Source: Escherichia coli
GTDB lineage: Bacteria; Pseudomonadota; Gammaproteobacteria; Enterobacterales; Enterobacteriaceae
Reading direction: 5' to 3' (one strand)
Assembly (NCBI RefSeq): GCF_050920415.1
Contig: NZ_CP169309.1
DNA: 64,000 nt
The notes beneath the pieces were generated by a model. The model had not been told where the DNA came from and did not search any database. It was given only the letters and a program-made list of their open reading frames with translations. The position numbers and the translations under genes were made by a program. Shown here one piece after another: positions 25,517 to 29,950 of the stretch; position 1 is the first letter of the stretch; the number at the start of each line of letters is the position of its first letter.

Positions 25517-26296
25517 ATGACGATGAATTCATTCGAGCGAAGGAATAAGATCATCCAATTAGTGAATGAACAGGGAACCGTGCTTGTTCAGGATCTGGCG
25601 GGAGTATTTGCTGCCTCGGAAGCGACAATCCGTGCCGATTTGCGCTTTCTCGAACAAAAAGGCGTGGTTACGCGCTTTCATGGCGGTGCGGCGAAAATAA
25701 TGTCCGGTAATAGTGAAACCGAGACCCAGGAAGTCGGGTTTAAAGAGCGATTTCAGCTCGCCAGCGCGCCGAAAAACAGAATAGCGCAGGCGGCAGTCAA
25801 AATGATCCACGAAGGGATGACCGTTATTCTCGACAGCGGAAGTACGACAATGCTTATCGCCGAAGGTTTAATGACCGCCAAAAATATCACGGTGATTACC
25901 AACAGTCTCCCGGCGGCGTTTGCCCTTTCCGAAAATAAAGACATTACTCTGGTCGTCTGTGGTGGCACGGTCCGTCATAAAACGCGCTCGATGCATGGCT
26001 CCATTGCCGAGCGTTCATTGCAGGATATTAATGCCGATTTAATGTTTGTCGGTGCTGATGGTATTGATGCGGTTAATGGTATTACGACCTTTAATGAAGG
26101 TTATTCGATTAGCGGTGCGATGGTCACAGCCGCTAATAAAGTGATTGCCGTTCTCGATTCATCGAAATTTAACCGTCGCGGTTTTAATCAGGTACTGCCA
26201 ATCGAAAAAATTGATATTATTATTACTGATGATGCCGTGTCAGAGGTGGATAAACTGGCATTGCAGAAAACACGGGTGAAATTAATTACGGTGTAG
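25517..26296 (+). CDS. gatR: DeoR-family repressor of gat operon (intact)
   Basis: 259 aa continuous ORF (alternative start at 25523); N-terminal HTH plus DeoR C-terminal sugar-binding domain; no IS interruption. Confidence 0.88.
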   Translation: MTMNSFERRNKIIQLVNEQGTVLVQDLAGVFAASEATIRADLRFLEQKGVVTRFHGGAAKIMSGNSETETQEVGFKERFQLASAPKNRIAQAAVKMIHEGMTVILDSGSTTMLIAEGLMTAKNITVITNSLPAAFALSENKDITLVVCGGTVRHKTRSMHGSIAERSLQDINADLMFVGADGIDAVNGITTFNEGYSISGAMVTAANKVIAVLDSSKFNRRGFNQVLPIEKIDIIITDDAVSEVDKLALQKTRVKLITV

Positions 26297-26377
26297 CATT
26301 GTTCTTTATGCCGGATAAGGTGTGTACACCGAATCCGGCATCACTGATACTCCCTGAATTAAGAAAGGGAAATTTGA

Positions 26378-27277
26378 TTAACGCAATAATGGACAATCCG
26401 GTGGTAATCGACAGCGCAATGCTGCCGGAAGTATTTCAATATGGAAGTTTTGCCCACTCAACGGTTCGCCATCAAGATTAAAGGTAATTTCGTGTGGCGC
26501 TTGTATATCGAACCACGCCGAAGCACCTTCGATAATATTCGGGTTATCTTCGTCAGATTTTAAGGTTGATACGAGAGCCGGAAGAATTTCATCGCCGGTG
26601 AAAATGCGTAGTTGCAGCAAGCCGTCGTTAATTAATGCGTTCGGGCACAATTGCTGACCGCCACCTGCCTGACGGCCGTTACCAATACCAATGACTAGTG
26701 CGTCACCTTGCCAGTGAAAGTTTTCACCGCGGATTTCACAACGGTCCGGTTGCAGTGTATCCATGCGCATTAAGCCGTGAATGATGTAAGAGACGCCACC
26801 CAGCGCTGCTTTTAATTTTTCCGGCGTTTCTGTGGTAATACGTGTCCCAAACCCACCCGTTGCCATATTAATAAAACAGGTTTGTTTGTTGACCTGCGCC
26901 ATATCAATCGCAATAGCGTCACCAGCAATTGCTAGTTTCAGCGCCTTATCCAGTGCCTCAGGTATACCCACGCTGGTCGCGAAATCGTTCGCTGTACCTA
27001 GTGGCAAAATCCCCAGCGCGGGTATGTCATCGCCCTCACACTGAATCAGCGCCGAGGAAACTTCATTAATAGTGCCATCGCCACCACCGGCAATTACCGT
27101 TGCGACGCCCAGCTTCCGGGCCTCTTCTACAAATCGGGCGGCATCGCCTTTCTCCCAGGTGACCCGCACATGGATCGTCATTCCTTCCTCGCGCAACAGC
27201 ATAATTGCTTCGCGCAAGGGTTGATTGTCAGTACTTTTGCCGTTAAGAATCAGTAAGCTGGCGGGAAATTCTGCCAT
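26378..27277 (-). CDS. yegS: Lipid kinase YegS (DAGK catalytic domain)
   Basis: 299 aa; GGDGT motif. Confidence 0.9.
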
Positions 27278-27759
27278 AATCGTATGCCTTTATGATTGGT
27301 CTGTAGATAGTGTAGAGCAGAAAAGAAAAGGCGGAGTCAGAACAGGATGAAAATCGGAGGATAAAAAATCAGTTCAAGGATGGGGAATTCAGTGGTTACC
27401 AGTAAGGGGGGCAACGGTACACTCGGTTTTTATCGGCATAAATGATCACTGAAAGCACTTAAGCATTATTTTACTGTGGATTCAGCGTGGCAGCGAACAT
27501 TAACGGTAATCAGGGACAAACTTCAAAAGAGCATATGCATCATATTCAACAAAGCAATGGCATCCTCAATGTACGATTCCAATTATATTAAATAATTCCT
27601 ATGAGGTTATCTGTGATAGGCCTCCATGTCTGTATTTCCTACTTATGTAGGAAATTCTGCACAAAACATTTATTATAATCCTATTCAATAATGACAATGA
27701 TGTCATTATTATATTTCAACACTAGAGAGTGTCGTTGGTGTTTAATGGGGGAAGGTGAG

Positions 27760-28077
27760 ATGAAAAAGACAGCTGCTATATCATTAATTAGTGTTTTTCT
27801 TATGTCTGGTTGTGCTGTGCATAATGATGAGACAAGTATCGGTAAATTCGGTCTTGCCTATAAAAGTAATATCCAGCGTAAACTCGATAACCAATACTAC
27901 ACTGAAGCCGAAGCATCTTTAGCCAGGGGCAGAATATCTGGTGCGGAAAATATAGTGAAAAATGATGCAGCTAATTTCTGTGTTACTCAGGGCAAAAAAA
28001 TGCAGATAGTTAACCTGAAGACTGAAGGGGCAGGATTACATGGCGTCGCGCGTCTGACATTCAAATGTGGAGAGTGA
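27760..28077 (+). CDS. yegR: Small lipoprotein YegR
   Basis: Internal start MKKTAAISLISVFLMSGCAV (lipobox) within ORF 27691..28077 gives 105 aa. Confidence 0.75.
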   Translation: MKKTAAISLISVFLMSGCAVHNDETSIGKFGLAYKSNIQRKLDNQYYTEAEASLARGRISGAENIVKNDAANFCVTQGKKMQIVNLKTEGAGLHGVARLTFKCGE

Positions 28078-28407: not shown

Positions 28408-28494
28408 GTTTATGCATAAAAAATAAGCCCGTGTAAGGGAGATTACACAGGCTAAGGAGGTGGTTCCTGGTACAGCTAGCATTTTATGGGTTAT
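28408..28494 (-). ncRNA. cyaR: CRP-dependent Hfq-binding sRNA CyaR (RyeE)
   Basis: Minus strand reads GCTGAAAAACATAACCCATAAAATGCTAGCTGTACCAGGAACCACCTCCTTAGCCTGTGTAATCTCCCTTACACGGGCTTATTTTTT; matches CyaR as I recall it, including the terminator hairpin and U-tail. Confidence 0.88.
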
Positions 28495-28588
28495 GTTTTT
28501 CAGCGAAACGGATGATAACCTTAATAAATGCAGCTGTATGTGATCGGTTTCTAAGAATTTTCCATCCGGGAAAAATAATCGAAATTAA

Positions 28589-29950
28589 TCACTTACCGTG
28601 GGGGTTACGCGTGGTTTCCCCGGAGAAATTTCGCATCAGCAGCGCGTAATTTAGCTCAAGATCCTGCGGGACCGGGATCCACACAGTATAACCATCGCCA
28701 GGTGCGACCGGCATTGCTTCGCCTTTGGCGTTTTCCATATGCTCAAGGGTAAAGTTAATGTTCCCTTGCGGCGTCATCAGCTCAAGGCTGTCGCCAACGG
28801 AGAATTTATTTTTCACCGCTACCGCCGCGAGGTCGCCCTTGCGCTCACCGGTAAACTCACCAACAAACTGCTGGCGGTCAGAAACTGAATAACCGTATTC
28901 GTAGTTCTGATAATCGTCGTGAGTATGACGACGCAGGAAACCTTCGGTATAGCCACGATGCGCCAGACCTTCCAGAGTTTCCAGCAGGCTGGTATCGAAT
29001 GGTTTTCCCGCAGCTGCGTCATCGATAGCTTTACGGTAAACCTGCGCGGTGCGTGCGCAATAGTAGAAAGATTTTGTACGACCTTCGATTTTCAGCGAAT
29101 GCACGCCCATTTTGGTCAGGCGTTCAACGTGGGCGATAGCGCGCAGATCTTTCGAGTTCATGATGTAAGTGCCGTGCTCATCTTCAAACGCGGTCATATA
29201 CTCGCCCGGACGCTGAGCTTCTTCGATCATAAACACTTTGTCGGTTGGCGCGCCGATACCCAGCGTCGGCTCAACATTTTGCACCGGAATCGGCTCGTAC
29301 TTGTGCACGATGTTGCCAACGTCATCTTCTTTCCCTTCCTGGACGTTGTACTCCCAGCGGCAGGCGTTGGTGCAGGTGCCCTGGTTCGGGTCGCGCTTGT
29401 TGATATAGCCAGAGAGCAGGCAGCGACCGGAGTAGGCCATGCACAGCGCGCCGTGAACGAAGATCTCTACCTCCATATCCGGCACCTGATTGCGGATCTC
29501 TTCAATCTCTTCCAGCGACAGCTCGCGAGAGAGGATCACGCGGGTCAGGCCCATTTGCTGCCAGAATTTCACCGTCGCCCAGTTCACGGCGTTAGCCTGT
29601 ACCGAGAGATGGATCGGCATTTCAGGGAAGTGCTCACGCACCAGCATAATCAGCCCTGGATCGGACATTATTAGCGCATCCGGCCCCATTTCCACCACCG
29701 GTTTCAGGTCACGGATAAAGGTTTTCAGCTTGGCGTTGTGCGGTGCAATGTTGACCACAACATAAAACTTTTTCCCCAGCGCGTGGGCTTCATTAATGCC
29801 GAGCTGAAGATTTTCGTGGTTGAATTCGTTGTTGCGCACACGCAGGGAGTAACGCGGCTGGCCCGCATAAACAGCATCTGCGCCATAAGCGAAAGCGTAA
29901 CGCATATTTTTCAGCGTTCCCGCCGGGGAAAGGAGTTCCGGTTTAAACAT
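28589..29950 (-). CDS. yegQ: U32-family peptidase-like protein (tRNA U34 hydroxylation factor TrhP/YegQ)
   Basis: 453 aa ORF; U32 family Cys-containing core. Confidence 0.88.
   Translation of the reverse strand: MFKPELLSPAGTLKNMRYAFAYGADAVYAGQPRYSLRVRNNEFNHENLQLGINEAHALGKKFYVVVNIAPHNAKLKTFIRDLKPVVEMGPDALIMSDPGLIMLVREHFPEMPIHLSVQANAVNWATVKFWQQMGLTRVILSRELSLEEIEEIRNQVPDMEVEIFVHGALCMAYSGRCLLSGYINKRDPNQGTCTNACRWEYNVQEGKEDDVGNIVHKYEPIPVQNVEPTLGIGAPTDKVFMIEEAQRPGEYMTAFEDEHGTYIMNSKDLRAIAHVERLTKMGVHSLKIEGRTKSFYYCARTAQVYRKAIDDAAAGKPFDTSLLETLEGLAHRGYTEGFLRRHTHDDYQNYEYGYSVSDRQQFVGEFTGERKGDLAAVAVKNKFSVGDSLELMTPQGNINFTLEHMENAKGEAMPVAPGDGYTVWIPVPQDLELNYALLMRNFSGETTRNPHGK

Follow-up and report, generated by a model that had tools for sequence, protein, structure and literature searches.

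EvgA is the response regulator of the acid-sensing two-component system EvgS/EvgA and belongs to the NarL/FixJ type, being composed of a receiver domain (Response_reg) and a GerE/LuxR helix-turn-helix (HTH) domain, for which solved structures are available (5f64, 8zwn and 3f6c). Its DNA site, the EvgA box, we take to be an 18-bp inverted repeat with the consensus TTCYTACA-N2-TGTARGAA, and yegR is a member of the EvgA regulon; both the box and the membership of yegR reportedly go back to work by Masuda and Church in 2002 and 2003 and by Itou et al. in 2009. The closest characterised homologue of EvgA is BvgA of Bordetella, which at fha and ptx has an inverted-repeat primary site far upstream and weaker sites that extend toward the -35 element.

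In the published literature, yegR is counted among the promoters that are bound strongly by EvgA (review PMC8147483), and in K-12 it was induced 11.9-fold alongside ydeO, yfdX, frc and oxc, the control being attributed to evgA (PMC5811628). An EvgA site is described as present in every directly regulated gene (PMC4283999). We looked for a printed EvgA-box consensus in accessible literature other than the primary EvgA papers, and found none. In addition, RNAP SELEX gave a peak flagged HNS in the yegR/yegS spacer (PMC3946193), and no phenotype was seen for a yegR knockout in glucose-limited chemostats (PMC3708739).

The yegR promoter described here lies in a 64-kb stretch of Escherichia coli DNA, which was analysed as a whole and which we call the window. 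It resembles the yegR locus of K-12 (b2085) in that the centre of the EvgA box is 115.5 bp from the ATG in both, the core TTCCTACTTATGTAGGAA is identical, and the neighbours are yegS, cyaR and trhP/yegQ. In contrast to K-12, the window has a T instead of an A at 27635, which makes the arms of the repeat perfect over 9 bp, as well as an extra stretch of about 70 bp upstream (27405-27475), within which there is a P2-type att/int scar, and another perfect palindrome at 27687-27710; the P2 remnant ogrK/yegZ, which K-12 has between yegR and cyaR, is missing. The boxes of ydeP, safA-ydeO, emrKY/evgAS, frc (yfdW) and yfdX share with that of yegR the 18-bp inverted repeat, a phased element at +26 and a hexamer at +53/54, but the yegR box differs from these five in having TTCC and not TTCT, and a centre ACT-TA-TGT and not ACA-NN-TGT. 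The BvgA sites at fha and ptx may be compared only in the way they seem to work, with an upstream inverted-repeat site, a weaker site toward the -35 and an HTH of the NarL/FixJ type, whereas organism, regulator and sequence are all different, and the EvgA geometry rests on predicted -10 elements.

The yegS-yegR region and its palindrome

The genes and elements of the region are arranged as follows:

gatR: 25517-26296, plus strand
yegS, lipid kinase, the divergent neighbour: 26378-27277, minus strand
yegS/yegR spacer: 483 bp, AT-rich
yegR coding sequence, 105 aa, the gene very probably controlled by the EvgA box: 27760-28077, plus strand; signal peptide and lipobox-like Cys (LMSGC)
Small RNA CyaR (RyeE): 28421-28506, minus strand; Rfam RF00112, 100.7 bits
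trhP/yegQ: 28589-29950, minus strand

The AT content is high throughout the spacer and yegR, which make up an island of 32-39% GC, as against 50-58% in the flanking genes. The palindrome occupies positions 27634-27655 of this spacer and is a perfect inverted repeat with a 9-4-9 architecture, ATTTCCTAC-TTAT-GTAGGAAAT:

Left arm, ATTTCCTAC: 27634-27642
Loop, TTAT: 27643-27646
Right arm, GTAGGAAAT: 27647-27655
Core assigned, very probably, as an EvgA box, TTCCTACTTATGTAGGAA: 27636-27653, no strand given; 15 of the 16 specified consensus positions (1 mismatch)

A repeat search recovered the same arms (9 nt, 100% complementary, 4 nt apart), and the palindrome ends 105 bp upstream of the yegR ATG at 27760. 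The preliminary description of this DNA, which had reported a perfect 9-bp inverted repeat about 105 bp before a lipoprotein gene yegR, in an AT-rich spacer shared with a divergent yegS, is therefore accurate on each of these points: sequence and repeat search agree on the palindrome, the GC content and the minus-strand position of yegS agree with the spacer, and the signal peptide of YegR ends in LMSGC, the name 'lipoprotein YegR' being also used in some RefSeq annotations. No Pfam family match was found for YegR. The palindrome is 357 bp from the yegS start, and no evidence in our analysis ties the site to the control of yegS. Elsewhere in the region, the terminator of the CyaR gene is seen at 28453-28426, and the gatR-yegS gap (26301-26370) has weak naRNA4/REP-like matches on both strands (33 and 22 bits, gathering score 59.5), so that it is probably a REP-type element.

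By itself the palindrome is only mildly improbable, and it is not compelling statistically. The whole window contains 20 raw perfect inverted repeats (about 11 loci) with arms of at least 9 bp and a spacer of 0-10 nt, and first-order Markov simulations give 3.6 such repeats as the expectation per 64-kb window; within the 483-bp spacer only 0.03 are expected, with a probability of 0.023 of finding at least one. The window-wide expectation favours the reading that the repeat is a functionless product of chance in AT-rich DNA, and so does a shared-18-mer comparison of the yegR spacer with the five EvgA-target spacers, where the palindrome shared the highest score (64 of 90) and the mean maximum of shuffled AT-rich spacers, at 63, was similar. 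The low probability within the spacer speaks against chance, and the significance of the palindrome derives from its match to a motif and from its conservation, which are described below.

A very probable EvgA box

The consensus was scanned as TTCYTACANNTGTARGAA with a threshold of at most 2 mismatches, and it was checked on five known target promoters. In K-12 it matches the promoters of frc (0 mismatches), safA-ydeO, yfdX and yegR (1 mismatch each), and ydeP and emrK/evgA (2 mismatches each). In the 64-kb window the segment 27636-27653 is the only match at this threshold, against 0.03 expected from shuffles. Strain MFDS1022581, which carries the allele of the window (over 6.5 kb, 6482 of 6483 positions are identical), has intact evgA and evgS, and in the 50 kb around evgAS of this strain the consensus matches only in the evgA-emrK spacer and in front of frc.

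A stray match with 2 mismatches, TTCTTACGCATGAAAGAA, is found inside the mdtE coding region of K-12 (L006, 5887-5904) and is probably due to chance. The expression of mdtEF responds indirectly to EvgA overexpression. In view of this stray match, the consensus motif alone is insufficient for assigning a site.

We also built a position weight matrix (PWM) trained on the five K-12 sites other than yegR only. This matrix ranks 27636-27653 first in the window, with 15.3 bits and z = 4.8. The yegR site scores below the training sites (15.3 versus 21.5-26.9 bits), which is accounted for by its TTCC, with C at position 4, and by its ACT-TA-TGT centre. Neither the consensus scan nor the PWM detected a second candidate EvgA box in the yegS/yegR spacer.

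The low score leaves room for a reading in which the palindrome is the operator of another dimeric regulator, either a repressor or another member of the NarL/FixJ-LuxR family (RcsB and NarL are candidates), with EvgA acting elsewhere or indirectly. The half-sites of this family are similar to each other. The NarL heptamer is TACYYMT, arranged as 7-2-7, and the RcsB arrangement is TAAGA-N4-TCCTA. The TACTTAT of the site fits the NarL heptamer and its TTCCTA/TAGGAA resemble RcsB half-sites, but the orientation and spacing are those of the five EvgA boxes and are unlike the NarL or RcsB arrangements. A role of EvgA elsewhere in the spacer is also disfavoured by the lack of a second candidate box there, and EvgA is reported to bind the yegR promoter (PMC8147483). 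We thus consider the involvement of another regulator highly unlikely.

The preliminary description had proposed a site for a dimeric regulator without naming it, and the proposal stands on the box match, the motif common to other EvgA promoters, the conserved arms and the reported binding of EvgA. We conclude with high confidence that the palindrome is the EvgA box through which EvgS/EvgA activates yegR. The EvgA operator of yegR is already known, and the regulator can be named.

Conservation of the site in E. coli and relatives

Of 5,426 complete E. coli genomes, 5,417 contain a 40-mer centred on the K-12 site (3,353 records match it at 99% identity or above and 1,862 at 95-99%), and 5,398 contain evgA itself. 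The preliminary description had made conservation in related genomes a check on its palindrome, and this near-universal presence does not refute it. The perfect 9-bp arms are nevertheless peculiar to the rare allele of the window, K-12 and most E. coli having AATTCCTAC...GTAGGAAAT, with AATTCC on the left side. Given that K-12 and most E. coli differ in the left arm, the conserved unit is the 18-bp core TTCCTAC-TTAT-GTAGGAA, with flanking A/T, and not the 9-bp arms. K-12 and 8 of the 10 divergent E. coli alleles that were sampled have exactly this core despite their differing flanks, and two alleles carry single substitutions, 21F61 (GTATGAA) and TB06052 (GGAG at the core end).

The combination of this conservation with the specificity of the motif excludes chance as the origin of the palindrome: the site is found in nearly all genomes and has been conserved better than the sequence around it, it is the one consensus match where 0.03 are expected, and binding of EvgA to the promoter has been reported (PMC8147483). 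A functionless palindrome is left with next to no probability.

A divergent Escherichia (L014), whose YegR is 91% identical and whose yegR is flanked by yegS and trhP, has ATTTCCTAC-AAAC-GTAGGAAAG at this place, so that the arms are kept, the central TTAT is changed to AAAC and the flanks have diverged. As read from the alignment, this pattern of kept arms and a free centre is the signature expected of a dimer operator. In the yegR homologues of other Enterobacteriaceae (L016-L018, 81-83% identical) we found no box, and no yegS or trhP nearby.

The same pattern can be read in terms of the nucleic acid itself, as L014 keeps the stem of a hairpin and changes its loop. The palindrome would then act either as a stem-loop of an RNA, within a long leader or an antisense transcript, or as a DNA cruciform, and a computational promoter (TAAACA-18-TATATT) has been placed upstream of the site by Shimada 2014 (PMC3946193). 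The 40-nt region folds with -12.4 kcal/mol on the plus strand and -11.3 on the minus strand (z = -5.2 and -4.3, respectively), but such folding is expected of any perfect palindrome. The substitutions observed argue against a conserved stem, with no compensatory pair changes and with pairs broken in 21F61, in TB06052 and by the common A·A outer mismatch. Furthermore, no U-tract follows the palindrome, the terminator scan was negative at the site, no Rfam match was obtained at E-values up to 1, and the site is upstream of every plausible EvgA-dependent -10. We give the hairpin very little probability. An intrinsic terminator or a known RNA family had been considered separately and was rejected, the stem having 3 G-C pairs of 9, no T-run and no Rfam match.

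In one genome, that of E. coli WP3-S18-ESBL-07, an IS1 (L007, 794-1588) has taken the place of all sequence more than about 88 bp in front of the yegR ATG. The gene baeR now adjoins, and the EvgA box is about 3.4 kb away, which looks like a natural rearrangement that has uncoupled yegR from its EvgA box.

Promoter layout and activation geometry

The six EvgA-dependent promoters were aligned on the box; safA and ydeP look paralogous, as do frc and yfdX, so that they represent fewer than six independent observations. In five of the six, a TC[CT][TG]A element is found at +26 after the box (0 of 5000 rotations, for a pattern that was defined post hoc), and five of the six have a -10-like hexamer at +53/54 after the box (12 of 5000 rotations). 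In the yegR promoter of the window the elements concerned are:

TATAAT, alternative -10, perfect: 27674-27679, plus strand; would put the box centre at -41.5
TCCTA, half-site-like element: 27679-27683, plus strand; exactly 42 bp downstream of the left half-site TCCTA
TATTAT, candidate -10: 27707-27712, plus strand; offset +54, would put the transcription start near 27719 and the box centre near -74.5

The TCCTA at 27679-27683 may serve EvgA as a secondary contact close to the -35 position. On the basis of the predicted -10 elements, two arrangements of the box are suggested. A box centred near -74 of the start is given an about even chance, and a class II arrangement, in which the box is at -41.5, is somewhat less probable, though well worth considering; other promoter arrangements share a small probability. 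The perfect TATAAT, at +21 after the box, is present in yegR only among the EvgA promoters. In L014 this hexamer has become TGTAAT, with loss of the -11 A, whereas TATTAT has become TATTGT and retains A2 and T6, which mildly favours the -74 model. The transcription start supplements of Mendoza-Vargas 2009 have no entry for yegR, safA, ydeP or emrK. A further candidate, consisting of a -35-like TGCACA and TATTCA, with the box near -49.5, was downgraded, since the aligned hexamers mostly lack the -11 A or the -7 T.

We can thus outline how the promoter may function. At mildly acidic pH, EvgS would phosphorylate EvgA, a dimer of which would bind the inverted half-sites TTCCTAC/GTAGGAA through its GerE/LuxR-type HTH domains, and the bound EvgA would activate sigma-70 transcription of yegR in an otherwise silent, AT-rich and H-NS-flagged spacer. 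The box would be about 74 bp upstream of a start near 27719, with the weaker, half-site-like TCCTA near -38. More generally, the EvgA promoters, including that of yegR, could have a joint layout with the box near -74, a TCYTA 42 bp (four helical turns) downstream near -38, and the -10 at +53/54. Taken jointly with the reading of the rare-allele scar and palindrome given below, this layout is a tentative proposal that we hold to be possible but rather doubtful. No description of such a three-part EvgA promoter layout was found in the literature searched. In the emrK/evgA spacer of K-12, read from the box toward evgA (L005, 5514-5590), we also observed a CCCTGATTT that is like the +26 block of frc and yfdX, but is located at +52.

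A P2-type scar and an extra palindrome in the rare allele

The yegR promoter allele of the window is rare, with 21 genomes at 99% identity or above and the others at 80-95%. At 27405-27480 it has about 70 bp that are absent from K-12, with a core match at 27434-27480. The match, over these 47 nt and with 87% identity, is to the integrase-3'-end/att arm of a cdt-V prophage of the P2-like (Peduovirus) type, and the matching prophage is found downstream of yegR in O157:H7 MB41-1 (L019, 20024-20070). The P2-type segment is present in only 61 of 5,426 genomes. In the window the scar is upstream of the EvgA box; the place near cyaR where P2 usually integrates is on the opposite side of yegR. We rejected the possibility that yegR is phage cargo, the sole full-length match in a phage database being an extracted P2-like prophage whose sequence also takes in the host genes gatR-yegS-yegR.

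The second perfect inverted repeat of this allele, AATAATGACA-ATGA-TGTCATTATT at 27687-27710, is located between the box and the yegR start and extends across the spacer of the predicted TATTAT promoter. The repeat is specific to this allele, the K-12 sequence being AATTATAATA-ATCA-TGCCATTATT, with only 6 of 10 positions complementary, and it could be either an additional operator or something that arose by chance in AT-rich DNA. Together, the P2-type scar and the extra palindrome may have rewired or retuned the control of yegR in the rare allele.

Implications for the EvgS/EvgA regulon

These findings add nothing new to the biology of EvgS/EvgA itself. They allow the palindrome to be annotated as the EvgA operator of yegR, instead of as an unnamed motif, and the rare promoter allele would keep its acid-responsive control. 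If the three-part layout is true, the EvgA promoters would show a BvgA-like cooperative occupancy that starts at a strong dimer site upstream and reaches a weak one in the -35 region.
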